Part shown: positions 15,787 through 63,130 of the stretch, piece after piece | How the letters are laid out: each line of letters begins with the position of its first letter | How positions within the stretch are numbered: position 1 is the first letter of the stretch | Origin: Gammaproteobacteria bacterium | GTDB taxonomy: Bacteria > Pseudomonadota > Gammaproteobacteria > Ga0077536 | Length of the DNA stretch: 64,000 nucleotides | Assembly (NCBI GenBank): GCA_963662545.2 | Contig: CAXXLL010000002.1 | Span: 640,001-704,000, forward strand | Reading direction: 5' to 3' | Made by a program: the position numbers and the translations under genes | The notes under the pieces: model-generated | Told to the model about the DNA's origin: nothing | What the model saw: the letters and a program-made list of their open reading frames with translations, nothing else | Databases searched by the model: none

Positions 15787-15917
15787 GTCCGGTTTGGGTC
15801 GTGAGCCGCCGCCTCGCGGCAGCGCAGCAATACTCTAGATTACGTCGGCAATACCCTCGTAAGCAGACATTAAGTAGCGTTTAGCTGCGTGCACATTATG
15901 AGCGTCGGCTTCCGGCC
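15787..15917 (+). repeat. Tri-modular repeat R1 (right arm displaced to 18996-19011 by IS1182)
   Basis: GGGTC 15796, GGCC 15914; central GTCGGCAATACCCTCGTAAGCAGAC module. Confidence 0.9.
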
Positions 15918-16107
15918 GAGGCCGTGTCAAAAGTCGGAATACGGTGGGGTCATGTTGAGAATACACGCGCAGACGAACGTCGGTGCCGTTCACCGGCCGC
16001 GATAACCGCCCCCTCAATCGACCGGCAAATGAAACGTTCTTCAGAACCGCCCCTGAGGCCGCCCTTGGAACTCTGAAACCGCCGGTTCTTTCAGGCGAAA
16101 GAGGGCG

Positions 16108-17537
16108 TCATACCCCCATCGCCGCGATTAAAGCGCCCGCCCCCTTGATTTGGAGAACGCGCTTCAGGTTATAAGCCAGCACGTGCAGACTCATCTCCGT
16201 ACTCACCCGTGGCAGCGTCTTCGTTAAGAAGTGCGTCGCTCCCATCCAGGCTTTCAGCGTCCCGAAGGGATGCTCGACCGTTTGTCGACGCAGTTGCATC
16301 TTCTCCGGAGCCGCGTGCAGTCGTGCCTGCATCTCGTCGAGCACATCTTCACGCTCCCAGCGTTTGACCCGACGCTCGAGACCGGTCGTACACTTCGCCT
16401 TGATCGGACAGTCCTTGCACGCCGTCGTCCAATAGACATTTAGCGTCAGCCCCTTCTCAATGCTGACGCAGCGCCATGTCAACGCTTCTCCCGCCGGGCA
16501 CCGGTATTGATCCTGCTCTGGCTCGTAGACAAAGTCTTGTTTGCCATACCGTCCTTTCTTCTTGCTTGGTGAAGTCAATGGCTTGGGCACGTAGGTGCGT
16601 ATCCCTTCATCCTCGCACGCCACGACCTCGGTTCCCGTGTAGTAACCCCGGTCACTCACCACCTCGAGATCGTCATGTCCGGTTGCGTCACGCGCCTGCT
16701 CGGCTATCGTCGCCAGATGCGCGCGGTCGCTACCCACGTTTGTCACCTCGTGCGCCACTATCAGATGGTTCTTGGACTCTACCGCCGCCTGCACGTTGTA
16801 GCCCACTATCCCGGTGCCCCGGGTCTTCATCGCGCGCGAATCCGGATCGCTCAGCGAGAGCTGCTGGTCTGGCTCAGCCAACCTGCGCTGCTCTAATGCC
16901 TTCAGACGCGACATCTCCTCTTCGAGCTGCTTCAGCTTGGCTTGTAAACCACTCACCTTCGCCTCCGGCATCGACGGTTGCGCTTGGTCGGCCTCATCCA
17001 ACTCAGCCAGGTAACGCGCTATATGCCGCTCAAGGCGCGCTTGACGCGCCTTCATCTTCGACTCAGTGAAGTTCTTGTCCCGTGAGTTCACCGCTTTGAA
17101 CTTGCTGCCGTCTATCGCCACCAGCGCTTGGCTGAACAGCTTGAGACGACGGCATACACCAATAAACTCACGGCACACCCCGACGATGCCTTTGCCGTTG
17201 TCCTTGCGGAAGTTGGCTATCGTCTTGTGGTCAGGCATCAGCCGACGCGTCAACCACATCACTTCGACGTTGCGTTGCGTCTCGCGCTCCAATCGCCGGC
17301 TCGACTGGAGGCGATTGAGGTAGCCGTAGATATACAGCTTCAACAGCGTCGCAGGGTCATAGGCCGGCCGGCCCAGCGCGCGAGGCTGATGACGCTCGAA
17401 GCCCAGGCCTTTCAGATCGAGTGCCTCGACAAACGCCTCAATCACCCTGATAGCGTTGTCTTCTGTGATGTAGTCGTCGAGTCGTTCCGGGAATAGTGTG
17501 CTCTGGGTTCGGTCTTCGCCTTCAACGAATCGCGTCA
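16108..17537 (-). pseudogene. IS1182 transposase separated from its start codon (ATG at 18931) by IS256
   Basis: SSRRLERE, AIDGSKF, DRGY and VEHPFGTLK motifs; the N-terminal MTR lies beyond the IS256. Confidence 0.85.
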
Positions 17538-18921
17538 GAGTTATTGTCAAAAGTGGTGTTCAGGCGGTTGAATCAAGCGGCGACCTGATTGACCCTTGTC
17601 ACCTCGATACCATCTTCAAATTTAACTCCAGTAATCACCTTGGCCAGGTAGTCGAATCCACGTAGGCGTCGCCAATTCTTCTGCGCACACCGCCCCAGCT
17701 TGAACATCATATGGAGCATGCCGTCCCGAGAGAGACCGCCCTTGGAGCGCCGGGTCCGGTGCCGGATCGTAGCGAAGGTGGATTCAATCGGATTGCTCGT
17801 GCGAATGCTTTGCCAATGTGGTGCCGGAAAATCATAGAACGCCAGCAACTCCTCACGGTCTTTCTGTAGGCACAGGGTCGCCTTGGGATACTTCGGTTCA
17901 TAGGTCTTGAGGAACAGCTCGAACGCCTTCTCGGCGTCGGCCTTTGTCGCGGCCTGCCAGATCGCGTGCAGGGCTTGCTTGGCTTTGGCCTGTGCCGACT
18001 TCGGTAGGCAGTTCAGCACGTTCATCGTCTTGTGCATCCAGCAGCGTTGCTGGCGGGTCTCACCGTAGACTTCCTCCAGTGCGGCCCAGAAGCCCATGGC
18101 ACCGTCCCCGATCGCCAGCTTGGGAATATTCATCCCGCGTGACTTCAATTTCAGCAACACCTCGCGCCAGCTCTGCGTGGACTCCCGCACACCATCCTCC
18201 ATCGCCAAAAAACGCTTCTCGCCTCGCTCATTGACGCCGATCACCACCAACGCACACAGCTTCGTGTGCTCCGCCCGCAGGCCACTGTAGACACCGTCCG
18301 CCCACACCTACACCCAGCGGTCTTGGTCCAATCGCCCCTCGCACCAGTCGCGGTATTCTTGCGCCCACACCTGCTTCAAGCGCGACACGGTGCTCGCCGA
18401 CAGGCCCTTCGCCTGCGGCCCCAACAAAACTTCCAGCGCAGCGCCCATTTCGCCACTGGAAACGCCCTTCAAATACAGCCACGGCACGGCCGCCTCCAAG
18501 GTTCTTGTCTTGCGCACATACGGCGGCACCAGCGCTGAACGGAAGGTCACCGGCTCGCCGAGCTTCGAACGAACCTTCGGGATCCTCACCGTCACCGGCC
18601 CCAAGCCCGTCTGCAACTGGCGTTCCGGCAAATAGCCGTTGCGAACCACACCTGCTTTGTCGTCCACCGTGCGATGTCCTGAATACTGCGCCATATATTC
18701 TGCCAGCTCGATTTCAACCGCTCGTTCAATCAGAGCACGAGCACCGTTTCTCAAGACCTCCGTCAACGGATCTGGTATTCCTTCTCGACCTGATAATTCA
18801 ACAACGTTACTCTCTCATGGTGGCGTATCCTCTTTGGTTGGCTTGCTGCTTGGTAACAACATTTCAACCAGATACGCCGCCTTTATTCAATTCGCTCAAA
18901 CACCAGATTCAGTTATAACTC
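17538..18921 (-). mobile_element. IS256-family element with inactivated transposase
   Basis: IRs GAGTTAT...TGGTG; 9-bp TSD ATCGCGTCA (17529-37 and 18922-30); QRCWMHK and RTSNPIES motifs; internal TAG at 18308-10. Confidence 0.9.
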
Positions 18922-19068
18922 ATCGCGTCATTCGGAACACCTAGGCGGGTCTTTCGATCAGTATGCACATCCTCGCAGACTTTTGACACAGCCTCGGCCA
19001 ACAGTGGACATCGAGCAATGCATTGTGGCGCCGAACTCTGTTATCGCTCCGAAGCGCGGACGAGATGC

Positions 19069-21121: not shown

Positions 21122-21252
21122 GTCGCCTTGGGGTCGTCAGCAGCCTGATTGGGGCGGTGCAGCACCTTTCAGCAACACGTCTGCTGTCCCCTCGTAAGCG
21201 GTCATTAAGTAGCGTTCGACGACGCGACTATGACGGACGGCGGCTCTCGGCC
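21122..21252 (+). repeat. Tri-modular repeat R2 (right arm at 21412-21427 after MITE)
   Basis: GGGTC 21131, GGCC 21249. Confidence 0.9.
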
Positions 21253-23823: not shown

Positions 23824-24129
23824 GTCCGTTATGGGTCCAGGCTGTCCGAAAACTCCGAAAAATCGTTACGTGACGAAAAGTTCCCCCACTTGTTGTCCTC
23901 ATAGCAGATGAATTAGGGATCACACTGTTCGAATTGATCAAGTTGGATAACGCATCCCCCACTTTCCAAATTCGAAATTAGTTTTCGGACAGGCTGGGTC
24001 GTTAGCGGCCCCGTCGCCACAGCACTGCACTGCTAAGCATTATGTCTGCAGTACCCTCAATAGCGGTCGTCCAATAGCGTTCGGTGGCACGAGCATGACG
24101 CGCGGCGGCTGTCGGCAAAAAACGGTCAT
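23824..24129 (+). repeat. Tri-modular repeat R3 containing MITE-B
   Basis: GGTC duplicated at 23834 and 23997; body 24001-24129. Confidence 0.9.
23838..23996. mobile_element. MITE-B (159 bp), inverted relative to the other two copies
   Basis: IRs CAGGCTGTCCGAAAACT; GGTC TSD. Confidence 0.88.
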
Positions 24130-25421: not shown

Positions 25422-25606
25422 CTAAGCTCGCGTTTGATTTGTCCATGCACGCCGCGCTTTTGACCGGACCGGCAAGACGCGTAGGGACTTGGGCGCGTTA
25501 TGGCAGGAGTAACCCTTGTCGACATAGACGCGCTCCGGTGCGACACCAATCCAGTTGGTCAAATCTTCGATGACGGTCCTGAGGGTGCTGTCGTCATAAG
25601 GGTTTG
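25422..25606 (-). pseudogene. IS5-family transposase remnant
   Basis: NPYD..TL...ERVYVDKGY..HN resembles the IS5 DDE region; cut at repeat R4. Confidence 0.6.
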
Positions 25607-25608
25607 AG

Positions 25609-25751
25609 GTCCGCAAAGGGTCGTCACCCGCCTAATCGCGGCACTGCAGCACTTCTCAAGGTTACGTCTGCAATGCGCTCGTAAGTGGTCGTCGAGGTCC
25701 CTCAAGCGTCGAGTCGAGAGGGTACGGCTGCAGTCGGCCACAAGCGGCCAT
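25609..25751 (+). repeat. Tri-modular repeat R4 (uninterrupted)
   Basis: GGGTC 25618, GTCTGCAATGCGCTCGTAAGTGGTC, GGCC 25736. Confidence 0.92.
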
Positions 25752-25779
25752 CACATTCGTACAGACCAAGTTCGTCAAT

Positions 25780-30193: not shown

Positions 30194-30655
30194 GCGCATA
30201 GGTAGAACAAAGGCCCTTTTCGGTATGTCGGCCGAGTATTCTGAGGTCATCGAACAACTGTCGAGCTGAACTTCGACACGGTGTTGGTCTGGGTCTCGCG
30301 CCTGAGTCGGCAGAAATCTCGCACTTCAGGGTGATTTTGCGATTGTTCCGAGCGTCGGGATAACAACAACTCTGCCACCTCGTTGGCATCGCAGCTGCGG
30401 GTGTTAGTCGCGCAGTTGGCGTGCATCAGCCAAACAAGCTGGCCTGAGGCGGTCCCCGAGACGGTGGCGAACGCCGGGCGGCGCCTAAAGCATCTTTGCG
30501 CTCGAGGTGCGTCAGGATCTCCTCGATCACGACAGGTTCTTCGATGCAGGCGATGATGCGCACAGTACCCGCAGGCTCTGCAGATGGTGATGTCGATTTG
30601 AAACACGCGCTTGAGTCTTTGTGACCATGTCACTGCGGCGGGGCGCTCTGCGAAC
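30194..30655 (-). pseudogene. IS91/ISCR 3' remnant with oriIS-like end
   Basis: WSQRLKRVFQIDI; IIACIEEP; minus-strand end AAAAGGGCCTTTGTTCTACCTATGCGC. Confidence 0.8.
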
Positions 30656-30657
30656 CT

Positions 30658-30800
30658 GACCGCATTGGCCCGTCAGCGGCCCCTTCGCGGCAGTTCAACA
30701 CTGTTCTAGATCAGGTCTGCAATCCTCTCGTAAGCGGTCGTGCGGCAGTGTTCAGCGGTGCGGTTAAGGTGCAGAGCGGTAGTCGGCCAGCACCGGACAT
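30658..30800 (+). repeat. Tri-modular repeat R6
   Basis: GGCCC 30667 (variant core), GGCC 30785. Confidence 0.9.
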
Positions 30801-30860
30801 TCACAGTGATCTCGGTCGTCGCTATCCTACGTGTTCGTTTACAGACGGGAGGTGTTAGAT

Positions 30861-32012: not shown

Positions 32013-32319
32013 GAAAGCTTTGGGTCGGTAGCTGCCGAGCCACCGCAGCGCAGCACAGCTAGAGATTACGTCTGCAATGCGCTCGGAAGCGGTCGTCTCG
32101 CAGCTTTCAGTGGAGCGTTAGCTGAACAGGACGGGTCACGGCCGAGGCTGTGTGAAAACTCAAAAATACGATGACGGAAGTAAAATTTTTCCCACCAGCA
32201 CAGTAATTAAGCACCTCGAAAAGGGATCGGCATTCCAATTAGAGTCAATTTCGAGTGTAGTTCCCCCACTTTTGAAAAACGAAAATAGTTTTCACACAGC
32301 CTCGGCCATAAGCGGGCAC
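32013..32319 (+). repeat. Tri-modular repeat R8 containing MITE-C
   Basis: GGGTC 32022; GGCC 32140 duplicated at 32304. Confidence 0.9.
32144..32303. mobile_element. MITE-C (160 bp)
   Basis: IRs GAGGCTGTGTGAAAACT; GGCC TSD. Confidence 0.88.
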
Positions 32320-33980: not shown

Positions 33981-34111
33981 GGCGGTGCAATCTACTCGCT
34001 GGATGGAAGCGCACCCAGAGTATAAGGCGGTTGACGTTCCTTTATGGCATTTGCGTCAGCTTGTGCGCCCGCATCGACGCATGAGCGGTTTCCGCTCACC
34101 GCCCATTTCCT

Positions 34112-34395
34112 GCCTCCTCGCGGCAGTGCAGCATCGCTCCAGATTAAGTCTGCAATACGCTCCATAGCGGTCGTCCGGTAGCGTTCGGGGCGCGACCCTG
34201 ACTCGCGGCTGCAGTCGGCCGAGGCTGTGTCAAAAGTATTTTCGAATTTTGAAAGTGGGAGAAGTTTAGCCCGATTCGTCTACCTTAGGCGGTGCGTTCC
34301 CTTAATCAATCGTGCATAACAACCTAAGTGGGGAAAATTTTCACGGCGGGCTCCATTTTTCGACTTTTGACACAGCCTCGGCCACAACCGGACAT
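34112..34395 (+). repeat. Tri-modular repeat R9 (5'-truncated) containing MITE-A copy 2
   Basis: CTCGCGGCAGTGCAGCA...GTCTGCAATACGCTCCATAGCGGTC; GGCC at 34217 and 34380. Confidence 0.88.
34221..34379. mobile_element. MITE-A copy 2 (159 bp)
   Basis: Same sequence as 21253-21411; GGCC TSD. Confidence 0.9.
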
Positions 34396-37037: not shown

Positions 37038-37303
37038 GGCCGCAATGGGTCCAGGCTGTCCGAAAACTAATTTCGATTTTGGAAAGTGGGGTATGCGTTA
37101 TCCAATTTGATCAATTTGCGCAGTGTGGTCCCTAATTTATCTGCTATGGGGACAACAAGTGGGGAAACTTTTCGTCGCGTAACGATTTTTCGGAGTTTTC
37201 GGACAGCCTGGGTCGTCAGCGGCCTCATCGCCGCGTTGCACCACTACTAAACGTTACGTCTGCAATCCTCTCAATAGCGGTCGTGCGGCAGTGTTCAGCG
37301 GCG
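37038..37303 (+). repeat. Tri-modular repeat R11 (3'-truncated, fused to ISCR tail) containing MITE-B
   Basis: GGTC at 37048 and 37211; module 2 present. Confidence 0.88.
37052..37210. mobile_element. MITE-B copy 2 (159 bp)
   Basis: IRs CAGGCTGTCCGAAAACT; GGTC TSD. Confidence 0.9.
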
Positions 37304-41105: not shown

Positions 41106-42789
41106 CAGGCTGTCCATAAACTCACTTTGCGGAGCACTTGACGGCTCATCCGGGCTGTTTGGTAGCGGCGTCATCACGATGCGCTGATTCTGCGCGTCCA
41201 ACAGCGTTTGAGAAACTCGACGCCAAAGTGGCGAAGGACATTCGCCGCCGCGGTCTATCCAACACCCGGAGGATGTTTCGGGAAAAAGGCGGGTTCCTAT
41301 GACTGTATCGCTTCTATGAGTGGCGCAACCCCGAGTATCGCCATCGCCCGTTTCATGTTGTACGCCAGCACGTGCAAACTCATCTCCGTACCCACGTTCT
41401 TCAGCGTTTTCATTTGGAAGTGTGTCGACCCCATCCAGGATTTCAACGTGCCGAAGGGATGTTCGACGGTCTGTCGTCGAACGCGCATGCGCGCGGGCTC
41501 TTTGTCCAACCTTGCTTCAACCGCTTCGAGCACGGCTTCGTGCTCCCAGCGGCTGACGCGTCGTTCTTTCCCCGTCGTGCACTTGCCTTTGAGCGCACAT
41601 GAACCACACGTCGATGCCCAGTAACGGTAGATTGTTAATCCGTCTTGGTGTGTTTCCGTGCGGCGCGTCAGTCGCTCTCCCGCCGGACATTCGTATTCGT
41701 CATCATCGGGCTTATAAATGAAATCCCGTTTGCCGAAGAGGCCCTTCGCCAGATTGCCCGAGGTCTGGGGTTTCGGCAGATAAGTCGTGACCCCCGCTTC
41801 ATCACACGCCAGGCTCTCCTCGCTCCTGTAGTAACCCCGGTCCGCGACAACCTCCAGGTGCTCAACACCGAGTGCTTCCTTCGCTTGCTTTGCCATGGCG
41901 GCGAGCGCCGCTCGGTCATGACCCACGTTCGTCACCTCGTGCGTCACGATCATATGATGTTTAGCGTCAACCGCCGCCTGTACGTTGTAGCCCACCATCC
42001 CCGTACCGCGCCCGCTGGTCGCCATCGAGCGGGCGTCTGGATCAGTCAGTGAGATCTGTTGGCCCGGTGCCTCAAGCATCCGGGCTTCCAACTTTTTTAG
42101 GCGCGCCATCTCCTCTTTCAGTCGGCTGATTTTATCCGCCAGTCGCTCCGTTTTGTCCTTCGCAACCGCTGCTTCCTGACGGTCAGCACTCGCCATCTGA
42201 CCCAGATACCGCTCAATGCTCTCGTCAATCTGCGCCAACCGACGCTTCAGCTTCGCCTTGGTGAAGTTCCGCTCCCGGTTGTTCACCGCCTTGAACTTGC
42301 TGCCATCAATCGCTACAAATGCCTCCGAGAATAATTCCAGCTTCCGGCACAGCATCACAAACTCCCGGCACACCAGACGAATGGCGACACCGTTGTCCTT
42401 CCTGAAATCCGCGATGGTTCTAAAGTCAGGCGCTAAGCGACCCGTCAGCCACATCAACTCCACATTGCGCTGCGCTTCACGCGCCAGCCGTCGCGATGAC
42501 TGAACTCGATTCAGGTAGCCGTATACGTAAAGTTTTAAAAGGGTTCTCGGATCGAAGCCCGGCCGACCCGCGGCCTTGGCCTCCGACTGGAAACCTAGAC
42601 CGGAAATATCCAGCTCGTCGATGAATACATCAATCACGCGCACCGCACTGTCTTCGCCGATGTAATCATCCAGTCGCTCTGGAAACAGCGTCGCTTGGTA
42701 GCGATCTTCGCCTTCAATGAATCCACTCATCAGACGATTCCTTGCGCGAAAGGTCGATTATAGATTCATGGGAGTTTTCGGACAGCCTG
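41106..42789 (-). mobile_element. IS1182-family element
   Basis: IRs CAGGCTGTCCATAAACTC / GAGTTTTCGGACAGCCTG; GGTC TSD. Confidence 0.92.
41297..42730 (-). CDS. IS1182 transposase
   Basis: SSRRLAREA, AIDGSKF, ADRGY and VEHPFGTLK motifs. Confidence 0.93.
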   Translation of the reverse strand: MSGFIEGEDRYQATLFPERLDDYIGEDSAVRVIDVFIDELDISGLGFQSEAKAAGRPGFDPRTLLKLYVYGYLNRVQSSRRLAREAQRNVELMWLTGRLAPDFRTIADFRKDNGVAIRLVCREFVMLCRKLELFSEAFVAIDGSKFKAVNNRERNFTKAKLKRRLAQIDESIERYLGQMASADRQEAAVAKDKTERLADKISRLKEEMARLKKLEARMLEAPGQQISLTDPDARSMATSGRGTGMVGYNVQAAVDAKHHMIVTHEVTNVGHDRAALAAMAKQAKEALGVEHLEVVADRGYYRSEESLACDEAGVTTYLPKPQTSGNLAKGLFGKRDFIYKPDDDEYECPAGERLTRRTETHQDGLTIYRYWASTCGSCALKGKCTTGKERRVSRWEHEAVLEAVEARLDKEPARMRVRRQTVEHPFGTLKSWMGSTHFQMKTLKNVGTEMSLHVLAYNMKRAMAILGVAPLIEAIQS

Positions 42790-43011
42790 GGTCGTAAGCC
42801 GCCCGCTCGCGGCAGTGCAGCACTGCTAGAGGTTAGGTCTGGGATACCCTCGTAAGCGGCCATTCCCTTCTCATAAAAAGCATCGCAGCGCTTGACTTCG
42901 GCTCGCGGCTAAGAGCGGTCCCGAATATAAACGGTGTTCGTCGAGAATTGCTATGCTTACAGAACTGCCCTCGGGTGAACATCCAATAAGACGATGTCGG
43001 GAGATCGGACC

Positions 43012-44877
43012 ATGAGAAATCTGCACCTGTTACCCCTGTTTGGATCCCTGTTCGCGTCGCTCGCTGCGTACGCTGAACCCGCAGCCGAAAAGTCGAAGGG
43101 ACTGGACGGCGCCGCACTGTACGCCGAACACTGTATCGAATGCCACGGGCGCGCCGCAATTTCCCCATCGTTGACGGCATTATCGAACATGACCGCCGAG
43201 GAAATTCACAAGGAACTGTGGTTCGGCGTCATGGCACAGTTTGTCAATGGCATGGACGATGCGAAGCGATGGACGATAGCCAAGTGGATCGCCGACCATA
43301 AACCCGAAAAGGGCACGCGCGGTGCCGGCGTGACCATGTGCAAAGACAAGACGCCGCTGGTACCCGATGCGGAGCATGACTGGCCTGGACTGTCGAACGA
43401 CAACCGCTACAACCGGCATGTGACTAATGCGCAGCTCACCGCTGCGGGGTTAGCGAACCTCAAGGTCAAGTGGGCCGTAGCCTTCCCGCAGGTCCACGCG
43501 TACCAGGGTGGTGGGCACCCGGTCGCCGTCGTCGGTGACCGATTGTTCGTAGGTAATCTCAATCAATGGGTCTACTCGCTCGATGCGGACACCGGGTGTG
43601 CCCACTGGGCGTTTCGTGCGGAATGGCGGATCCGATCGAACATCGCGGTGTCCGACGGTATCGCCGTGTTTGGCGATCTGGGGGCCAACGTCTACGCTGT
43701 AGATGCGGAAACGGGCCAATTGCTGTGGCGCGACCGGGCGGATTGGACGCCGACCTCACGCATTACGGGCAACGTGACGGCGCACGACGGCATGGTTTAC
43801 GTGCCCGTGTCCTCCTTCCAAGAAGTGCTCAATATTGGCAAACATAGGGAATACCCGTGCTGTACGTTTCGCGGCAGCATCGTCGCCTATGACCTGCGTA
43901 CCGGTGAGCGCAAGTGGAAGTCCTACACCATCGACAAGGAATTCGGGTATCTGGGCACGACGAAAGCCGGCACGAATCGCTACGGTCCCTCGGGGGTCGT
44001 GGTGTTCTCGGCCGTCACGGTCGACGACAAGCGCGGCCTGCTTTACGTGCCAACCGGCAACCAGATGACTGAGCCGGTCGTGCGCGAATCCGACGCCATG
44101 TTGGCGTTGGACATGAAAACCGGCGCCAAGCGCTGGGTGACTTCACTGGCACCCGAGCAGATGGGCGGCCAGGACATCTACCACCTGGGCTGCGAAAAGT
44201 GGGTGGATCCCGAACAGAAAACCTGTTCGCCCTTAAACCCGACGGGACATGGTGACCGGGATATCGTGTCGCCCGCGGTGCTGGTGGAACGATCGGACGG
44301 TAAGGAGATCATCGTGACCGGATCCAAGGACGGCATGCTTTACGGCCTGGATCCGGATGACAGCGGCAAAGTCCTGTGGCAGATCCGCCTCGGCGCCGGC
44401 GGAGAGCTCGGCGGCATCCAATGGGGATTCTCGAGCGACGGCATAAATGCCTACGTACCCGTCATCGATATGGATGTGGACATGAAGGCGAACGGGTCCT
44501 TCACGGCGGTCGATCTCCTGACCGGTAAATCCATCTGGCGTATACAGGATATGACGCCTGATTGTGAAGGTAAGACGTCACCCCCGTGCAGCAACGCCTT
44601 CAGCTTGCCCAGTACCGTGGCGGGCGACGTCGTTTTCACGGGCACCGGCGACGGCGTACTGCGCGCTTACGATACCGCGACCGGCAAGCCGGTGTGGACG
44701 TTCGATACCGTGCGCGAATATGAAACGGTTAACGGCCGCAAAGGGTTCGGTGGGGGGCTCGGCTCGTTCGGGGGGCCCGTCATCGTGAAAAACCGGTTAT
44801 ACGTTTCATCCGGCATGGATCAGTTCAATATTGGGCTGCCCGGAAACGTACTGATCGCGTTCGAGATCCCCGAATAA
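43012..44877 (+). CDS. PQQ-dependent quinohemoprotein, polyvinyl-alcohol dehydrogenase-like
   Basis: Signal peptide, CIECH heme, PQQ beta-propeller repeats, YPCCTFRGS, GGIQWG, PGNVLIAF. Confidence 0.85.
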   Translation: MRNLHLLPLFGSLFASLAAYAEPAAEKSKGLDGAALYAEHCIECHGRAAISPSLTALSNMTAEEIHKELWFGVMAQFVNGMDDAKRWTIAKWIADHKPEKGTRGAGVTMCKDKTPLVPDAEHDWPGLSNDNRYNRHVTNAQLTAAGLANLKVKWAVAFPQVHAYQGGGHPVAVVGDRLFVGNLNQWVYSLDADTGCAHWAFRAEWRIRSNIAVSDGIAVFGDLGANVYAVDAETGQLLWRDRADWTPTSRITGNVTAHDGMVYVPVSSFQEVLNIGKHREYPCCTFRGSIVAYDLRTGERKWKSYTIDKEFGYLGTTKAGTNRYGPSGVVVFSAVTVDDKRGLLYVPTGNQMTEPVVRESDAMLALDMKTGAKRWVTSLAPEQMGGQDIYHLGCEKWVDPEQKTCSPLNPTGHGDRDIVSPAVLVERSDGKEIIVTGSKDGMLYGLDPDDSGKVLWQIRLGAGGELGGIQWGFSSDGINAYVPVIDMDVDMKANGSFTAVDLLTGKSIWRIQDMTPDCEGKTSPPCSNAFSLPSTVAGDVVFTGTGDGVLRAYDTATGKPVWTFDTVREYETVNGRKGFGGGLGSFGGPVIVKNRLYVSSGMDQFNIGLPGNVLIAFEIPE

Positions 44878-44884
44878 GGGTACC

Positions 44885-45028
44885 GTGACGGCGATTAGAT
44901 CGGAGGACGTTATTCAAAGCGTGGCGGACGCGTTGCAATACATCTCGTATTACCATCCGCCCGACTACATCGCCAACCTCGCGCGCGCCTACGAGCTCGA
45001 AGAGTCGCAGGCCGGCGTGGCCGCTTAG
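44885..45028 (+). pseudogene. fumA: N-terminal fragment of class I fumarate hydratase, cut at repeat R13
   Basis: IQSVADALQYISYYHPPDYI...AYELEES, then runs into the repeat. Confidence 0.8.
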
Positions 45029-45149
45029 GGTCGTCGGCGGCCTCCTCGCGGCACTGCAGCACTGTTTTAGATTGCGTCTGCTATTCCCTCCATAGCGGTC
45101 GTCCAATAGCGTTCAGCGGAACGTTTACAGAGCACTTCAGCTTACAGCC
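45019..45149 (+). repeat. Tri-modular repeat R13
   Basis: GGGTC 45028, AGCC 45146. Confidence 0.9.
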
Positions 45150-46943: not shown

Positions 46944-47162
46944 TAGGTTTAATAATTCTCCGTTGTCACCTAACCCTCTAATTCACCTTGGCTTAGCCGA
47001 ATCTTCGCTTTCTCGCCATTTCTGCCGCACCGTTCCACCTACCCTTGAAGACCGCTCCGCATTTTTCGATAAACACAGTCATGCCTTTTTTCTGGTCCTC
47101 GGTAGAAAACGCCAGGGCCACCGCTCCAGTCGGAGAAGGAAGCAAGGTAATCTACCGTCGAT

Positions 47163-48993
47163 GTCCGCTGTGGGTCCAGAGTGTGTGAAAACTCTGCATC
47201 AGATAAGATCACTCTTTCGGTCCTGGGGAGTCGTTGATGAGCGGGTTCATTGAAGGCGCGGACCGCCGCCAAACAACGCTGTTTCCCGAGTGTCTGGACG
47301 ATTATGTCGCTGAGGAGAGTGCGGTGCGGGTCATCGATGTGTTCGTCGATGAGTTGGATCTGTCAGGTCTGAGTTTCAGAACCGATGCGCATGAGACGGG
47401 TCGACCGGGGTATCACCCGGCGACGATGCTGAAGCTCTATATCTACGGTTACCTGAACCGGGTTCAATCGAGCCGTCGCCTGGAACGGGAGGCGCAGCGG
47501 AACGTGGAACTGATGTGGCTGACGGGTCGTCTGGCGCCTGATTTCAAGACCATTGCCGATTTCCGCAAAGATAACGGTGACGCCATTCGTCTGGTATGCC
47601 GGGAGTTCGTGATGCTGTGCCGTAAGCTGCAGCTGTTTTCGGAAGCCTTCGTGGCGATAGATGGCAGCAAGTTCAAAGCGGTAAACAACCGTGACCGGAA
47701 CTTCACGAAGGCGAAGCTGAAACGTCGGTTGCAGCAGATTGACGAGAGCGTTGAGCGGTACCTGGCGGAAATTGCAAGTGCCGACCGCCAGGAGCGTGCG
47801 GTGTCAGGTGACAAGTCGCAGCGTTTGAAGGACAAGATCGAGGTACTGAAGGAAGAGATAGGCCGCCTAAAAAAGCTCGAGGTACGGCTCGAGGAGACGC
47901 CGGACCATCAGGTCTCACTGACGGACCCGGACGCGCGCTCGATGGCGACGAGCGGCCGTGGCAGCGGCATGGTGGGGTACAACGTGCAGACGGCGGTCGA
48001 CACGAAGAGTCATCTGATTGTGGCACATGAAGTGACGAACGTAGGTCATGACCGGGCGCAACTGTCGAACATGTCGGAGAAAGCCAAAGAGGCGCTGGAT
48101 AAGAAGGAGTTGACCGTCGTTGCGGATCGCGGGTACTTCAGTGGCGAAGAGATCTTGGCGTGCGCTAAAGCCGGCATCACGACCTATCTGCCGAAACCGC
48201 AGACCTCGGGTAACCAGGCGAAGGGCTTGTTTGGCAAGCGCGACTTCATTTACCAACCCGAAGAGGATGCGTATGAATGCCCGGCCGGTGAGCGACTGAT
48301 TTACCGGTTCACCCGAGTGGAGAAAGGCAAGCAGATCCGGCGCTACTGGAGTTCGGCGTGTCCCCGCTGCCCGATCAAATCTAAATGCACAACGGGTCGA
48401 TACCGGCGCGTCAGCCGTTGGGAACATGAAGCGGTTGTTGAAGCGGTGCAGGCGCGATTGGATCGTGAACCTGACCCTATGCGTGTCCGCCGAGAGACGG
48501 TCGAGCATCCATTTGGCACGATCAAATCCTGGATGGGTTCGACCCACTTCCAGATGCGCACGCTGAAACACGTTGGTACGGAAATGAGTCTGCACGTGCT
48601 CGCTTACAACATGAAACGCGTGATGAATCTACTGGGTGTCGCTACGCTCATCGAAGCGATGACGGCATGAGACCCTCTGTGGCCTCGAAAACTCCCTGAT
48701 CCACGGCTTCACTGCCGGCTTCTGGGGCCGTTCTAAGGAATGTTCCATTAACTAACCGATCGCATTGGACCGCGAGCGCGGCCGTCGTAACCGCGCCGCG
48801 TTGCGTCTGACGAGGAGTTCTCGACGTGATTCCTCTTCATTCCGAGTTTTCACACACTCTGGGTCGGTAGCTGCCTGATCACCGCGGCGCAACGCTGCTC
48901 TAGTTTACGTCTACAATGCGCTCGGAAGCGGTCATCGAGTTGCTTTAAGCGTTAAGTCGAGAGGGTACGACGGCTCTCGGCCAAGTGTGGGCC
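47163..48993 (+). repeat. Tri-modular repeat R14 split by IS1182 (47163-47176 + 48862-48993)
   Basis: GGTC duplicated; GGCC 48979. Confidence 0.88.
47177..48861 (+). mobile_element. IS1182-family element (1685 bp), copy 1
   Basis: IRs CAGAGTGTGTGAAAACTC; GGTC TSD; CDS 47237-48670. Confidence 0.93.
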
Positions 48994-53050: not shown

Positions 53051-53313
53051 CGCAGTATGCCGCGTCACCACTCGCGGTTCGGGTGATGATCGCAACCCTA
53101 TAATCGAGTTCTTACCCGGTTATCTCGCCGTACTAATTGGATCCCGCCTTTTCCAACTGCACGGATTCCTGAAGCGTTGTCGTGAATTCGAACGAGGGCG
53201 GGGTCTTCGATGCAGGCGATGACTGTAGAGCACCGCACCTGCGTATGGCTTTTGGATCTATTTTCACAGTCGGGTTGTGCTGGAAGTAAGCGTTCTAAAC
53301 CTGGAACTCCGAG

Positions 53314-53456
53314 GACCACTTTGGGTCGTCAGCGGCCGAATCGCGGCAGCGGATCACCGCCCTAGATTACGTCTGCAGTGCGCTCCATAGCAGTCGTCGA
53401 GTAACGTTCACCGACGCGTTAACCGATGACGACGGCAGTCGGCCAATAACCGATAT
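53314..53456 (+). repeat. Tri-modular repeat R16 (uninterrupted)
   Basis: Modules start at 53314, 53371 and 53431; GGGTC 53323, GGCC 53441. Confidence 0.92.
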
Positions 53457-53769
53457 ATCCCGAATCTGCTACCAGTCAAGCGAATAATTAAATTCGCCCA
53501 ATATCCTGGCACTGAGTGACTAAAATGGTGGCGCTGAGAAAAAATATTACGTGCTAATGCCCGGCTTTAAAATCGGCGGTTGGGGCCCATAATTGTAGTT
53601 GGGTACAAAAAGAAGAGAGGAAATTTAGCAAGTGCCAGTGCCGCCATCAGGATTGAAGTTGGCTTTACTAATTGACCATATAATGGAACCGGATAAAAAC
53701 TGGTTTATCGCGCCAGAAGGTCATTTCTGGTATTGGGTGCCAGCTGACTCTGCACTCTTTCCCCTTTTC

Positions 53770-55255: not shown

Positions 55256-55561
55256 GTCTCCTTAGGGTCTAGGCTGTCCGAAAACTAATTTCGATTTTGG
55301 AAAGTGGGGTATGCGTTATCCAATTTGATCAATTTGCGCAGTGTGGTCCCTAATTTATCTGCTATGGGGACAACAAGTGGGGAAACTTTTCGTCGCGTAA
55401 CGATTTTTCGGAGTTTTCGGACAGCCTGGGTCGTCAGCGGCCTGATCGCGGCAGTGCAGCGCTAGAGACGGTTACGTCTGCAATGCGCTCGTAAGCGTTC
55501 GTCCAGCAGCGTTCGGCGGACCGTTAACCAAGGAGTTCGGCTCCCAGCCAACAGCGGTCAT
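55256..55561 (+). repeat. Tri-modular repeat R17 containing MITE-B copy 3
   Basis: GGTC at 55266 and 55429; AGCC 55546. Confidence 0.9.
55270..55428. mobile_element. MITE-B copy 3 (159 bp)
   Basis: Nearly identical to 37052-37210; GGTC TSD. Confidence 0.9.
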
Positions 55562-57555: not shown

Positions 57556-57798
57556 TTTTTTCAACAGAATATCTGACTCTCGTGGAAAAGTTGTTGTCCT
57601 CCCCAGATTGTCCGCCTCCACTGCACGAAATGCTGCCATGGTATATGCCAGACGACCTAGCAGGCCAAGCCGAATAGCAGTTCGCCAATGCGAATGACAC
57701 CACTCAGGTTAACAAATGCGCTCCAGCCGACACTTGACTGCGTCCTTCCTTCGCTACCGATCCGGTGGGTGAAATACGCCTAGTAATCTGTCCTCGAT

Positions 57799-57942
57799 GA
57801 CCGCTTCGGGTCGTCAGCGGCCTTGTCGCGGCAGCGCATCACTGTTCTAGATTAGGTCTGTAATGCTCTCCATAGCGGTCGGCGAGTCGCCTTAATGGCG
57901 GCTACGGATGAGCGGTTCGGCTCTAAGCCAAGAGGACGACAT
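57799..57942 (+). repeat. Tri-modular repeat R18
   Basis: GGGTC 57808, AGCC 57926. Confidence 0.9.
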
Positions 57943-57951
57943 TCCTTGATA

Positions 57952-59648
57952 GTGTCCGTCCATAAACAGGCATTTTCTTCGATGGGCACGGAGAAATCGA
58001 GGTGTTGAAAGTAGGTTGTTGGAGCGGTAGCGGCGGTTCGGTGGGGGTCGAAGGGCTCTTCGAGCGTAATTGTGAGTACGTTCGCCGGCCGCAGAGCGCT
58101 GCAACCCAAAGTCGCCCGTTCGACGATATCGAGGAGGTCAGTTAGTGCGAGTGAACGTCGCTATTCGAGTTGATAGCGCGCGAGCAGGCTGAGGTTGTAG
58201 GCGACCACAGAAGACCACACGTAGGCTTCGAAGTGCGGCAGGCTCTTCCAGGTGCAACGTGCCAATCCGTATGCACGCTTCAGGCAGGAGATACCGGCCT
58301 CGATGCCGGCGCGGAAGTTGCGCAAGCGTCGATAGACCCACTGACTCTTGACCATGTCGGCGATCGCGAGCCCGCGCTTCTTGTGGAAGGCAACGTCTTC
58401 GATGCCTTCTGCTTTCGCCGCCCGGAGATTGTCGAGGCTCGCATAGCCGCCATCGGCGGCGACCTGTCGTGGCATCGTCCCGTAGTGTGTTCGATGCCGT
58501 TCGAGCATCGGCATGAAGCGCTGACTATCGACCGGATTGCCTCGCTCGATGACCACGTCGAGGATGAGGCCACTGCGCCCCGAAGCCAGATTGATTTTGT
58601 GTCCGTACTGAACGTCGCGCGCACCCTTTATGATGATGTCGGTATGCGGCTCGAACAAGCTCACGCACTTCTCGCTCGCGGGGACCTTCTCACCGCCGAA
58701 CACCCGCCGCTCAGTTTGCGAAATCACCTGCAGAACAAGTGTTTCGTAGTGCGCTACCTGCGCTAGCCAGTCCGGCAGTTCAACGCCGGTGACGCCCGGG
58801 CTCAGCAGCTGCTCACGTACCCTCGCTACCGCTTCCAAGGTTGAACGCGTCGCCCCAATCAAATCGCGATACAGACGTTGGCGTTGCTTCGCACCACGCG
58901 CATACCACAGCGCCCGCGCACGCTTCTTCGCCAATCGAGTGTGGTTCACGAAGCACAACTCCGGCGCGCCAGGCAACTCGCGCGCCTGTGCGAGCAGACG
59001 AACCACAACACGCACGCCATCCCACAGCAGATGACTGTCGCTCGGCGCGTGGATGGCACTGTCCGTTACCGTGCTATCAATCCGTACACGCTGTGCCGGC
59101 TCAATGCGCGTCTCTTTCGCCGTCGCCAGCAGGGCGCGATGAATAGACTCCCACGTCGATACCTGGATCGCCGAGACCACCCGCTGTAAGGCAGACTTCT
59201 TCGGACGTTCATTACCCGGCAACCGGGCGAAGGCCTGAAAGCTCGCCGAGTCCTGCAGGTGAAAGGCCAGCTCCTCGTAACTCAATTGCCGGTGCTGCTT
59301 GAGCACCGCGCAGCGCAGCACCGACTCCGCCGACAGTCCGCGTCGACCGGTGGGCTTCAAACCCCGCCGACACAGATCGTTCATGACCGGCGTGAGGACC
59401 TTGGGGTGAGCATCGAGCCACTCGGACATGCCCTGCAGCTCTCGCCCCAGGTCATGGTCAGCAAACAGCTCGTATATACTCGCTTGGGCCGTGCGTTTCT
59501 GACGCATTCCCCCTCCTGTGGTGTCGATGATTGTGTGGAAAATCAGAGGTTTGAAGTTCCATTAGATCACGACCCACCGGAGGTTTCGATCCCTTAAGCG
59601 ACAAATTTTCCTTTTTATTTCAACCGCATCGCGTTTAGGGATGCACAC
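57952..59648 (-). mobile_element. ISNCY/IS5-like element (transposase 58161-59507)
   Basis: IRs GTGTCCGTCCATAAAC / GTTTAGGGATGCACAC; TTGATA duplicated; RIDSTV, ADGGY and FRAGIEAGIS motifs. Confidence 0.88.
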
Positions 59649-59705
59649 TTGATAGCGGTCGTACGGTTATCCTATCCCTTCAATCAGCAACGGAAGGTAT
59701 TGACT

Positions 59706-60242: not shown

Positions 60243-60306
60243 TTGCGACCCAGGTCAAAACGCCTTTTATCGAATGAAAAGGATGCTGAGTAACGCAGCG
60301 CAACAA

Positions 60307-62138
60307 GTCCGCTGTGGGTCCAGAGTGTGTGAAAACTCTGCATCAGATAAGATCACTCTTTCGGTCCTGGGGAGTCGTTGATGAGCGGGTTCATTGAAGG
60401 CGCGGACCGCCGCCAAACAACGCTGTTTCCCGAGTGTCTGGACGATTATGTCGCTGAGGAGAGTGCGGTGCGGGTCATCGATGTGTTCGTCGATGAGTTG
60501 GATCTGTCAGGTCTGAGTTTCAGAACCGATGCGCATGAGACGGGTCGACCGGGGTATCACCCGGCGACGATGCTGAAGCTCTATATCTACGGTTACCTGA
60601 ACCGGGTTCAATCGAGCCGTCGCCTGGAACGGGAGGCGCAGCGGAACGTGGAACTGATGTGGCTGACGGGTCGTCTGGCGCCTGATTTCAAGACCATTGC
60701 CGATTTCCGCAAAGATAACGGTGACGCCATTCGTCTGGTATGCCGGGAGTTCGTGATGCTGTGCCGTAAGCTGCAGCTGTTTTCGGAAGCCTTCGTGGCG
60801 ATAGATGGCAGCAAGTTCAAAGCGGTAAACAACCGTGACCGGAACTTCACGAAGGCGAAGCTGAAACGTCGGTTGCAGCAGATTGACGAGAGCGTTGAGC
60901 GGTACCTGGCGGAAATTGCAAGTGCCGACCGCCAGGAGCGTGCGGTGTCAGGTGACAAGTCGCAGCGTTTGAAGGACAAGATCGAGGTACTGAAGGAAGA
61001 GATAGGCCGCCTAAAAAAGCTCGAGGTACGGCTCGAGGAGACGCCGGACCATCAGGTCTCACTGACGGACCCGGACGCGCGCTCGATGGCGACGAGCGGC
61101 CGTGGCAGCGGCATGGTGGGGTACAACGTGCAGACGGCGGTCGACACGAAGAGTCATCTGATTGTGGCACATGAAGTGACGAACGTAGGTCATGACCGGG
61201 CGCAACTGTCGAACATGTCGGAGAAAGCCAAAGAGGCGCTGGATAAGAAGGAGTTGACCGTCGTTGCGGATCGCGGGTACTTCAGTGGCGAAGAGATCTT
61301 GGCGTGCGCTAAAGCCGGCATCACGACCTATCTGCCGAAACCGCAGACCTCGGGTAACCAGGCGAAGGGCTTGTTTGGCAAGCGCGACTTCATTTACCAA
61401 CCCGAAGAGGATGCGTATGAATGCCCGGCCGGTGAGCGACTGATTTACCGGTTCACCCGAGTGGAGAAAGGCAAGCAGATCCGGCGCTACTGGAGTTCGG
61501 CGTGTCCCCGCTGCCCGATCAAATCTAAATGCACAACGGGTCGATACCGGCGCGTCAGCCGTTGGGAACATGAAGCGGTTGTTGAAGCGGTGCAGGCGCG
61601 ATTGGATCGTGAACCTGACCCTATGCGTGTCCGCCGAGAGACGGTCGAGCATCCATTTGGCACGATCAAATCCTGGATGGGTTCGACCCACTTCCAGATG
61701 CGCACGCTGAAACACGTTGGTACGGAAATGAGTCTGCACGTGCTCGCTTACAACATGAAACGCGTGATGAATCTACTGGGTGTCGCTACGCTCATCGAAG
61801 CGATGACGGCATGAGACCCTCTGTGGCCTCGAAAACTCCCTGATCCACGGCTTCACTGCCGGCTTCTGGGGCCGTTCTAAGGAATGTTCCATTAACTAAC
61901 CGATCGCATTGGACCGCGAGCGCGGCCGTCGTAACCGCGCCGCGTTGCGTCTGACGAGGAGTTCTCGACGTGATTCCTCTTCATTCCGAGTTTTCACACA
62001 CTCTGGGTCGATAGCCGCCTCATCGGGGCAGGGCAGCACCACCAAGCGACACGTCTGGATTACTTTCGAAAGCGGCCATCCTGCTTCTGTTGGCATCACC
62101 TCTGAGGGTGACTTCGGCTCTCGGCCAAGTGCCGTCGT
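60307..62138 (+). repeat. Tri-modular repeat R19 split by IS1182 (60307-60320 + 62006-62138)
   Basis: GGTC duplicated; GGCC 62123. Confidence 0.88.
60321..62005 (+). mobile_element. IS1182-family element (1685 bp), copy 2
   Basis: Same IRs and identical protein to 47177-48861; CDS 60381-61814. Confidence 0.93.
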
Positions 62139-62400
62139 TCAATGTGGCGACACATAACAACAGCTTACGGATCAGAAAACGGTCGTTCGTGCAACGTGCC
62201 TCATAATGCCTGGTTGACGCATTCCGGACCTTGTGCGATTTTCCTCCGGAGGTGCTTCCATTTACTCGGCCGGTCGTCAAAATTTGTAGCACTGGCCTTT
62301 GAAGGGGCGTCAAATCGGGAATGTTGGCTGAACGGCGTCGTCACGTTGATCGCCTAAAGCTCGCGCTTGAACTTCACAGTCAAATTCTTATTTGAGTCAC

Positions 62401-62926
62401 ATGAACGAGCAGATCCATTACGCAAGCGGAATCCTGACCCTGCTCATCGAATCGCTCGCCAGTGCGCTACCCGGAATCTTCGCCGGCCTGGTCGTCATCG
62501 TTGCCTTTTTCATCGCCGCCGTCATGAGCCGCAAGCTGTTGCGCCGTTTGTCGGCGCGGGTCGAGGCCGACAAGCGCCCGCTAGTAGAGCTAGCCGGCGA
62601 GACACTGTTCTATGTCGTGATCGCCATCGGCCTGGTCACGGGTCTCGGCACGATGGGAATCGATGTCTCCGCGCTGATCGCCGGCTTGGGCTTGACTGGC
62701 TTCGCGCTCGGTTTCGCCCTGCGCGACGCGGTCTCCAATTTGATCGCCGGCGTGCTAATCCTGCTGTATCAGCCCTTCGGTTACGGTGACAAGATCACGG
62801 TGGGCGGCAATAGCGGCACGGTGATTGGCATTAACCCGCTACACGGTTCTGGAAGCCGATGGCGGGACCGTCGTCCACGTGCCCAACAGCACTATGTTCA
62901 GCAATAGCGTCACGGTCGAGGCGTGA
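62401..62926 (+). pseudogene. Small mechanosensitive channel (MscS family), frameshifted near 62836
   Basis: GFALGFALRDAVSNLIAG, PFGYGD; the alternate frame continues RYTVLE...VHVPNSTMF. Confidence 0.8.
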
Positions 62927-62998
62927 ACCGGAGATAGCGCCGTATAAAACGGTGTGGCGGCCAACCTTTGACTGCGCCCTTCCTTCGATGCCGCTGAT

Positions 62999-63130
62999 GT
63001 CCATTATTGGGTCGTTAGCCGCCGCCTCGCGGCAGTGCAGCACAGCTCTAGATTACGTCTGCAATGCGCTCCATAGCGGTCGTCCAGTAGCGTTCGGTGG
63101 CGTGAACATCACGAGGGGCGGCTCTCGGCC
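62999..63130 (+). repeat. Tri-modular repeat R20
   Basis: GGGTC 63009, GGCC 63127. Confidence 0.92.

Follow-up and report, generated by a model that had tools for sequence, protein, structure and literature searches.

Among systems that collect unrelated genes at one repeated site and in one orientation, only integrons are well understood, to our knowledge. Integron cassettes are mostly single promoterless open reading frames (ORFs) that are co-oriented with their recombination site, attC. In this work, we describe a non-coding repeat of about 147 nucleotides (nt) found in a 64,000-nt stretch of an uncultured gammaproteobacterial genome; this whole stretch, positions 640001 to 704000 of contig C2 of assembly G000 (G000:C2:640001-704000), is called the window below. 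The genome also carries classical integrons. Within it, the repeat reproduces an integron-like layout at genome scale, with 12 arrays that comprise 112 copies, and it fails every structural test for attC.

Arrays of integron cassettes without a neighbouring integrase are called CALIN (IntegronFinder paper, PMC4889954). The arrays described here are like CALIN in that co-oriented sites of ~100-150 nt part unrelated accessory genes with no integrase nearby, in that they have a gene family in common with the true cassettes of the genome, and in that some families of insertion sequences (IS) enter the sites specifically. Unlike CALIN, the repeat has neither R''/R' boxes nor a stable single-strand hairpin, and what is conserved is the sequence rather than the fold. 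In addition, the median spacing of the repeats is 2.3 kb, versus ~0.6 kb in the genome's own integron, the modules between repeats hold genes in both orientations, probably with their own promoters, and copies belonging to one array are only ~66% identical.

The host assembly, G000, comprises 5.58 Mb in three contigs with 58% G+C. Two other species of the same genus, G001 and G002, are available for comparison, both as fragmented assemblies; the genus consists of uncultured bacteria and is probably sponge-associated. In the window, copies are located with a 77-nt core segment, scored against one reference copy, and with a 125-nt span. An nhmmer model built from the 16 window copies is then used to search G000 with a threshold of E <= 1e-3, and a sequence-only covariance model is run against 40 relatives.

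An initial annotation of the window described 16 near-complete copies of a ~140-bp repeat, all on the + strand, about 1-5 kb apart and absent from the first 15.7 kb, and these observations hold. There are 16 direct copies of the 77-nt core segment, 62-91% identical to the reference copy (14 when the comparison extends over 125 nt), all on the + strand between positions 15794 and 63131 and spaced by 1.0-5.6 kb; no copy is found in the first 15.7 kb of the window. A 19-nt core motif, allowing three mismatches, matches the window ten times, always on the + strand, where 0.02 matches are expected from 100 shuffles; ten or more matches are reached in 0/100 shuffles. The unit itself is redefined by the alignment of the copies. 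It consists of a 122-nt core, GGGTCG...CTCGGCC, and flanking inverted repeats of ~12 nt, GATGTCCGCTnT on the left and AAnAGCGGACATC on the right where no IS intervenes, which gives a total of ~147 nt. With the ends of the core included, the flanks make up imperfect ~17-nt inverted repeats at the two termini (ATGTCCGCTnTGGGTCG and its complement), and the conserved blocks of the core include an imperfect palindrome of ~15 + 13 + 15 nt (ATCGCGGCAGTGCAGCAC, a spacer and ATTACGTCTGCAATGCGC). The 16 copies in the window are as follows, where MITE stands for a miniature inverted-repeat transposable element.

R1, 15784..15917, + strand: left inverted repeat and core (15796-15917); right end displaced by an IS to ~18996-19010.
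R2, core 21131..21252, + strand: an IS1182-type end adjoins CGGCC at the right.
R3, core 23996..24117, + strand: MITE of ~155-175 nt at GGGTC (left); left inverted repeat at ~23824-23836.
R4, 25606..25752, + strand: core 25618-25739, both flanking inverted repeats present.
R5, 30655..30801, + strand: core 30667-30788; a gene of the MNW family (see below) begins ~59 nt further on (ATG 30861, stop 31379).
R6, core 32022..32143, + strand: IS1182-type end at the right edge.
R7, 34104..34221, + strand: left-truncated (columns 18-147 of the nhmmer model).
R8, core 37210..37331, + strand: MITE at the left edge; right third replaced, followed by a C-terminal fragment of an IS91-family transposase.
R9, core 42789..42910, + strand: upstream of a module with a pyrroloquinoline quinone (PQQ) dehydrogenase gene.
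R10, core 45028..45149, + strand.
R11, core 48861..48982, + strand: the right end of an IS1182-family element adjoins GGGTC.
R12, 53311..53457, + strand: core 53323-53444.
R13, core 55428..55549, + strand: MITE (~55271-55427) at the left edge.
R14, 57796..57942, + strand: core 57808-57929, preceded by a degenerate short attC-like sequence (D12 motif, 57726-57768).
R15, core 62005..62126, + strand: the right end of an IS1182-family element adjoins GGGTC.
R16, 62997..63143, + strand: core 63009-63130, nearest to the consensus of all copies; the left half of a short attC-like site (62960-63002) directly adjoins it upstream.

The four partial copies reported along with the complete ones are also present (family D11, at 18978, 21394, 32286 and 34362). 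They are best explained, however, as right ends of repeats that were shifted away by IS insertion, not as copies in their own right.

The layout seen in the window extends over the genome. The search of G000 yields 121 matches, 65 on the + strand and 56 on the - strand, and 112 of the 121 fall into 12 arrays of at least three copies, whose total span of 283,717 bp makes up 5.1% of the genome. Copies are a median of 2,256 bp apart (interquartile range 1,041-3,290 bp and full range 211-13,344 bp, over 100 intervals). Orientation is uniform in ten of the 12 arrays (33, 17, 11, 9, 8, 6, 4, 3, 3 and 3 copies) and switches once in each of the other two (----++++++ and ---++), so that random scatter of the copies over the genome is refuted. 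The window is part of a longer run, with 39 copies in 136 kb, all on the + strand, which is made up of C2:612977-633989 (6 copies) and C2:655786-748872 (33 copies). At both switch points, the DNA contains ISL3, IS1182-type and other DDE transposases, and the switches are most simply read as inversions mediated by IS. The idea of a recombinase sited there was discarded: only IS transposases and ordinary genes are found at the two switches.

These properties separate the repeat from the usual classes of bacterial repeats. REP, BIME and ERIC sequences are dispersed, occur in both orientations and form palindromic hairpins, and the repeat differs on all of these counts. Clustered regularly interspaced short palindromic repeats (CRISPR) are short and have regular short spacers, whereas here a ~147-nt repeat is spaced by 211-13,344 bp. 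No Cas family appears among the 40 window ORFs compared with Pfam, 36 of which come from the array region, although no search aimed at cas was made.

The comparison with integrons can be made within the same genome, since G000 carries two integron integrases above the TIGR02249 cut-off (265), with 462.5 and 461.1 bits, at C2:996654-997670 and C3:1527128-1528210. Each intI has its own canonical attC array, and the nearer one lies ~248 kb from the window array. The term "integrase-less" in the initial annotation is therefore correct for the window, where no intI is found and the array does not form a complete integron (intI with attI next to it), and incorrect for the genome. The canonical attC sites of this genome are ~110 nt long with ends ACCTAAC...GTTAGGT, have a spacing of ~0.6 kb, and fold at -29 to -50 kcal/mol over 110 nt. 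The complete integrons span C2:985244-997670 and C3:1524815-1528210, and attC clusters with no integrase are located at C3:1917898-1949543, C2:1163242-1168088, C2:1371995-1372700 and C2:2113058-2113737.

An ad hoc scan for attC sites, which requires box pairs and a hairpin, detects seven sites in the 12.6-kb integron region that serves as a control and none in shuffled sequences (0, 0, 0). In the window, it gives one weak match, 7592-7704, inside a gene and away from the repeats, in agreement with the earlier statement that the window has no canonical attC set. Neither R'' (RYYYAAC) nor R' (GTTRRRY) boxes are present at the ends of the repeat (GATGTCCGCTnT...AAnAGCGGACATC). Single-strand DNA folding of five copies on both strands gives z-scores of -1.11 to +0.55 relative to 100 dinucleotide shuffles each. 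A consensus fold of 67 copies has 26 predicted pairs, which are mostly broken by variation (for example, pair 52-85 is paired in 35/67), and two-sided changes at any pair occur in at most 3/67 sequences. Rfam gives 0 matches at the gathering score over the whole window and 0 at E up to 1 for three copies, and ARAGORN predicts 0 tRNAs and 0 tmRNAs in the window. On the folding z-scores, the covariation and the Rfam and ARAGORN results, we reject a structured RNA or an attC-like hairpin. A coding repeat is ruled out as well: in six-frame translation, no frame is open in more than 29/67 copies, and by inspection the variable positions have no third-base pattern. The earlier view that the repeat is distinct from both attC and CRISPR is thus borne out by the tests of boxes, fold, repeat size and spacing.

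The DNA between the repeats consists of ordinary enzyme and transporter genes, the remainder of the arrays being IS. In the window, the cargo units are unrelated to one another, with ten on the + strand and eight on the - strand by our count; several hold two or three genes, and ORFs reach 670 aa, so that the single co-oriented ORF typical of integron cassettes is not the rule here. The initial annotation had described intervals of unrelated genes in either orientation, which is correct, although much of what it took for cargo is IS inserted within repeats. The Pfam matches comprise GFA, luciferase-like monooxygenase, alpha/beta hydrolase, polysaccharide deacetylase, DoxD and MFS proteins; a methyltransferase with cytochrome c and flavocytochrome c sulfide dehydrogenase; a BBE oxidase; GFA with acetoacetate decarboxylase; PQQ dehydrogenase; flavin monooxygenase; FMN-binding protein; acyl-CoA dehydrogenase; Na/H exchanger; an SLT-LysM protein; a truncated MscS; and a band-7 protein.

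Modules are shared between arrays and between species. The clearest case is the following.

42948..44988, + strand: PQQ-dehydrogenase module, beginning 38 nt past one core and ending 40 nt ahead of the next.

A locus that has no repeat (C3:2732105-2734146) matches this module with 97.1% identity over 2,042 nt. The module also stands between repeats, with other neighbours, in one further array of G000 and in one of G001. Between G000 and G001, the identity of other modules is 93-98%, compared with 78-90% for most of the remaining shared segments. For example, the DoxD module at window positions 29534-30195 is 98% identical to G001:C17:30880-31541, and this value, compared with the 78-90% of most other shared segments, suggests a recent exchange between species. 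Homologues of the window cargo are spread over many contigs of G001 and G002, some of them at repeat-free loci, and the order of the cargo is not syntenic among the three species, contrary to what a fixed chromosomal region would show. Some duplications between arrays take in an entire interval along with parts of the cores on both sides. A module can also be inverted relative to the repeat: one 556-nt segment lies against the right edge of a core in one array but against the left edge of a core in another.

The copies of the repeat are about equally distant from one another wherever they lie. The median core identity is 66.9% between neighbours in an array, 65.0% between non-neighbours of the same array, 66.1% between different arrays and 63.3% between species. 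The closest relative of a G000 core is the adjacent copy in 0/87 cases and a copy in another array in 69/87. Because neighbours are no more alike than distant copies, growth of the arrays by local tandem duplication, as well as local homogenisation, is excluded, and the repeat family is old and well mixed. At the same time, many core columns have one base in at least 90% of copies. The flanking inverted repeats are less conserved than the core, and both are recognisable in 12/55 copies. Core identity between species is nearly that within G000, yet these near-invariant columns contrast with the weaker flanks, which points to long-term constraint on the interior sequence; judging from the alignment, the interior blocks must be under selection as sequence.

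We tentatively read the repeat as a double-stranded recombination or junction site at which modules insert in one orientation, and give this reading, the best of those considered, less than an even chance. A cassette-type array built on a site other than attC is the most economical reading of three findings, because the copies are co-oriented without a gradient of similarity between neighbours, their interior is constrained and their modules are shared. The repeat would be a lineage-specific junction element, read as double-stranded DNA, that parts modules of accessory genes, and the arrays would be assembled and reshuffled through recombination at its copies. In this scheme, a module carrying one copy would enter at a resident copy in a fixed orientation; all copies would then point one way, regardless of how the genes of the module are oriented. 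As a model of insertion, we infer a site-specific mechanism in which a dedicated conservative recombinase, acting in trans, would use a circular intermediate, and the conserved core blocks are proposed to be its protein-binding sites. A more far-reaching form of the proposal, an integron-independent gene-capture platform, is conceivable, and we regard it as doubtful. Here a trans-acting recombinase would recognise a ~120-bp double-stranded site instead of a folded attC, would both insert and excise modules of whatever internal orientation, and would build arrays of up to 39 modules over 136 kb that coexist and share cassette genes with integrons. If a dedicated enzyme exists, these uncultured, apparently sponge-associated bacteria would have a further route of gene capture, new to science, and the repeat would be a new recombination site that works as double-stranded DNA. 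If there is none, the arrays would be a natural case of a conserved intergenic repeat that organises accessory genes into modules and attracts several IS families to fixed positions.

The nearest double-stranded counterparts are the sites of resolvases and Xer recombinases (res, the Tn4430 IRS, cer/psi and pdif). Like the repeat, these sites comprise ~120 bp of double-stranded DNA with an imperfect palindrome and further motifs, and directly repeated sites bracket DNA that is movable as a unit. As in pdif modules, the cargo occurs in either orientation and in different contexts. The pdif sites are 28 bp long and alternate in orientation. Unlike the sites of resolvases and Xer recombinases, the repeat has no cognate recombinase adjacent to it, its copy number is far higher, and the break points are not at one position.

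Several observations weigh against insertion at a dedicated site. The break points of shared modules fall at several positions, and in the other species the ends of modules do not always adjoin the repeat. The linkage between blocks of the core, described below, decays with distance and fits diffuse homologous exchange as well as a single crossover point, or better. Some copies are placed inside or alongside half of a short attC site of canonical appearance, a point in favour of an element that colonises such sites. No recombinase is found consistently next to the arrays, where the initial annotation had suggested looking for a conserved neighbouring recombinase or HUH gene. Among recombinase genes, only those of IS91-type elements are enriched in arrays, and the fragmented assemblies of G001 and G002 contain nothing close to the IS91-associated recombinase (best 34-36%). 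Accordingly, the part of the initial annotation that makes the repeat a co-oriented delimiter of cargo stands, while site-specific recombination at the repeat, given the several break points, the almost unlinked blocks and the enzyme that was not found, is a hypothesis.

The break points themselves come from six pairs of copies, five of them independent, that have a common right flank and different left flanks; the copies are thus mosaic. The onset of identity lies in the centre of the core in two pairs (near GCAGCAC / TGCTCTAGATTAC / GTCTGC) and at the right edge, CGGCC, in two pairs, one of which is between species; one further pair is accounted for by an IS. A third central and a third right-edge change of partner were found by eye. 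Linkage between five blocks of the core is measured by a distance-correlation test on the 101 distinct sequences among the 104 near-full cores of G000. Adjacent blocks are weakly linked, with r = 0.17 (p = 0.007), 0.13 (p = 0.003) and 0.08 (p = 0.06), and non-adjacent blocks are unlinked (r from -0.06 to -0.01). The mapped pairs thus have no single break point, and the weak linkage of blocks agrees with this. This is what would be expected if no dedicated machinery were involved and an old dispersed repeat, either selfish or bound by a host protein, served as portable homology for ordinary homologous recombination or short-patch gene conversion. The break points lie in or near the longest conserved stretches, at several positions, the linkage decays with distance, the intervals duplicated between arrays take parts of their flanking cores with them, and the arrays are crowded with at least seven IS families, all in keeping with such exchange. 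However, exchange preserves co-orientation and clustering and does not create them, the identical stretches are short (~20-30 nt at 66% overall), the copies are not homogenised inside arrays, and the strong constraint on the interior is left unexplained. We consider this explanation rather unlikely.

To about the same degree improbable, in our judgement, is an explanation in which the repeat is a non-autonomous, MITE-like element that colonised old cassette junctions (CALIN) in a fixed orientation, so that its co-orientation is inherited from attC and the cargo is not moved by the repeat. The repeat is indeed small and non-coding with imperfect terminal inverted repeats of ~17 nt, it is restricted to one lineage and has ~100 copies, like the Correia/NEMIS, ERIC and RUP elements, and true integrons and CALINs occur in the same genome. 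What links it to cassette junctions is, in particular, a motif called D12 to the left of some cores, which looks like the left half of a second, ~75-nt, canonical-looking attC family. It has 19 matches, of which ~10 by our count adjoin the left inverted repeat, with the core either adjacent or beyond an inserted IS or MITE; five of these have the junction directly after CCGCT. The ~75-nt attC-like hairpin family itself reads GCCGACGCTTGACCGCG...GTCAAGCG...GTTAGGC, and some copies of the repeat lie within its members or just after them. Its members include the following.

Window 36999-37041: ~75-nt attC-like family.
Window 57726-57768: the same family, before R14.
Window 62960-63002: the same family, adjoining R16.
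C3:371674-371722, C2:1375396-1375446 and others: the same family, elsewhere in the genome.

Stand-alone sites of this type are co-oriented inside repeat arrays. At C2:727058, in an attC-like context within an array, the left and right inverted repeats are adjacent (GATGTCCGCAAAG CCAGAAGCGGAC) with no 122-nt core between them. Together with the occurrence of MNW genes both as canonical cassettes and ~55-65 nt past the repeat, these facts keep the colonised-junction explanation alive. On the other hand, where both inverted repeats are present (12 copies), the outer flanks pair no better with each other than cross-paired flanks do (-17.7 vs -16.8 kcal/mol, p = 0.21), and the 70-nt flanks of these copies contain R''/R' boxes in 0/12 cases. 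A selfish burst predicts the opposite of an interior that is conserved above the ends at ~66% mean identity. The modules exceed integron cassettes in size, are often multi-gene and run in both orientations, and the same module is bracketed by repeats in three contexts. No target-site duplication is visible in the flanks of the repeat, and no autonomous parent element with its ends was found, though the search was not systematic. Unlike the MITEs named above, 112/121 copies are confined to 5.1% of the genome with near-perfect co-orientation, and the interior is conserved above the ends.

The MNW family deserves a closer description, since it connects the repeat arrays with the integrons. It consists of ~170-aa proteins with the start consensus MNWEAIGA and an N-terminal hydrophobic segment, and it has 49 matches in G000, including window 30861-31379, with a median identity of ~27% and no Pfam domain. 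Of these, 16/49 by our count begin within ~110 nt downstream of a co-oriented repeat, most of them at 55-65 nt, and the flanks contain a putative promoter, TTCAnG-N17-TATGCT, between the repeat and the gene. At least 15 other MNW genes are ordinary cassettes in canonical attC arrays. A protein search returns 18 matches, unnamed or "hypothetical" and without Pfam domains, and a search of named genomes finds no relatives; DUF6082, found on 32% of the members of the second-ranked atlas cluster, is a weak lead. The position of the 16 genes raises the possibility that the repeat is a leader or operator of MNW genes and that the arrays are old tandem duplications of leader and gene into which other genes were inserted later. 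However, adjacent copies are no more alike than distant ones, only 16/121 copies have an MNW gene close downstream, canonical cassettes contain members of the family with no repeat, and one member lies to the left of a copy and points away from it, at the spacing that others have on the right. We therefore hold this origin to be highly improbable.

IS91-family elements raise a different possibility. Two such elements occur in G000, type A with a 384-aa Y2 transposase and type B with a 397-aa one, each with a tyrosine recombinase gene (293 or 319 aa) upstream of the Y2 gene. The six copies, one of which is interrupted by an IS256-type element, are at the following approximate positions.

C2:613114-615620: IS91-family copy.
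C2:623594-627500: IS91-family copy.
C2:627530-629850: IS91-family copy.
C2:1616781-1619284: IS91-family copy.
C3:6584-9421: IS91-family copy.
C3:920816-923401: IS91-family copy.

All six (6/6) lie in arrays or within 5 kb of them and are co-oriented with the repeats. Where the flank is recognisable, the junctions follow GGCCA at the right edge of the repeat. In type A, the left end adjoins a core or core remnant in 2/3 copies and the right end of a type-B element in the third; in 2/3 type-B copies the right end is followed by the right inverted repeat of the repeat. IS91-family elements mobilise adjacent DNA. It is therefore conceivable that the modules are decayed products of one-ended, rolling-circle (HUH, IS91/ISCR-like) transposition that accreted head to tail, with the repeat as the end-to-end junction, and fragments of a third Y2-transposase family do adjoin several copies. 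We regard this as very unlikely nonetheless. The left end of the resident IS91-type element has no similarity to the core and so the repeat is not an IS91/ISCR end of this kind, the element type is absent from array-bearing G001 and G002 (best 34-36% in these fragmented assemblies), Y2 fragments are common outside arrays too, and cargo can be inverted relative to the repeat. The IS91-borne tyrosine recombinases were rejected as the enzyme of the arrays, being the first genes of IS91-family elements and having no close homologues in G001 and G002.

The arrays contain IS of at least seven families (IS1182, IS256, ISL3, IS3, IS91, IS630, and IS4 or IS5-like), and several of them use the repeat as a target. 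The elements in the window that bear on this are as follows.

15918..18995, - strand: IS1182-family element, transposase 16108-17550, inserted after CGGCC of R1.
17573-18307: IS256-family transposase fragment within the preceding element.
~41101-42788, - strand: relative of the IS1182-family element at 47157..48860.
47157..48860, + strand: IS1182-family element, transposase 47234-48670, inserted at GGGTC with a 5-bp duplication; ~14 copies in the genome.
60300-62004: twin of the preceding element.
57937..59665, - strand: IS with a DDE_Tnp_1 transposase (58161-59507), ~54 genomic copies.
23842-23995, 37043-37211 and 55271-55427: derived MITE of ~155-175 nt with ends AGGCTGTCCGAAAACT.

At the left edge of the core, the IS1182-family elements and the derived MITE enter at GGGTC and duplicate 5 bp; at the right edge, related elements enter after CGGCC, the mirror-image position in the opposite inverted repeat. 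Entry at GGGTC or GGCCG within the inverted repeats is a sequence-specific choice of target. Elements of IS630 and IS4 type, in turn, sit in the central spacer of the repeat. The repeat is thus a preferred IS target like attC for IS1111 and REP sequences for IS110; it differs from these systems in that other families are involved (IS1182 and IS91-type) and in that the target is neither attC nor REP.

Independent assemblies also carry arrays and intervals of this kind. The public metagenome runs examined consist of assembled contigs in all cases. A 4,209-nt contig of one independent run covers R12 and both of its modules with 0 differences. Words were sampled from a 6.7-kb stretch of the locus, and half of them or more are present in 14 of the 22 listed runs. 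Runs with any part of this stretch come from nine studies, and several of those that bear the region are labelled sponge metagenome; one RNA run contains a small part of the stretch. These data, and the presence of arrays in three separately assembled species, make an assembly artefact, in which contigs are misjoined at repeats, scarcely credible. What speaks for an artefact is that some stretches are 100% identical on two contigs, namely C2:2578480-2582224 with C3:909997-913741 and C2:2586680-2588015 with C3:12090-13425; these, one of which is near contig ends, reflect either recent segmental duplication or assembly redundancy. In one metagenome run, contigs precisely lack the 1.7-kb DDE_Tnp_1 IS (joint 57944 to 59648, with a shorter side of 121 nt). 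Contig joints from repeat to repeat have sides of only 20-37 nt that can be assigned to any of the 121 copies; no circular or excised form was seen, which such short sides could not show, and we give them no weight for or against excision. In runs X14, X18 and X19, the locus is covered only in pieces too short for a cargo order to be read from them. In run X18, R11 is followed by a "skip" of 893 nt; it leads to the left end of an IS3-type element, so that it may come from another locus, and it is likewise given no weight.

The repeat is present in all three species searched in the genus (3/3, covariance model). G001 has 26 matches, including 14 co-oriented copies on one contig, and G002 has seven. 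In 32 other genera it was not found, save for one weak match at E = 8e-4. On these searches, the repeat is found only in one genus. In a collection with one genome per species, which may leave out records of the window's own genome or very near ones, the 19-mer occurs in two stretches, a contig of a metagenome-assembled genome (MAG) and a lone match in Pseudomonas graminis, the latter taken for a chance match. The named relatives of one window protein are MAGs of uncultured Gammaproteobacteria or Pseudomonadota. As to the literature, nothing resembling the repeat appears in the titles and beginnings of abstracts retrieved by full-text search, which agrees with the absence of an Rfam match in pointing away from an element already described.

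Two further candidates for the enzyme of the arrays were examined and rejected. Small tyrosine recombinases occur near two arrays; they are mutually unrelated, and each is found once. An integrase of ~397 aa with a P4-type arm-binding domain is present in four copies, at C3:2174520-2177530 and three other loci, and was set aside because it is P4-like and far from arrays. It is followed on the same strand by two ORFs of 313 and 328 aa, and the locus may be a multi-copy integrative element.

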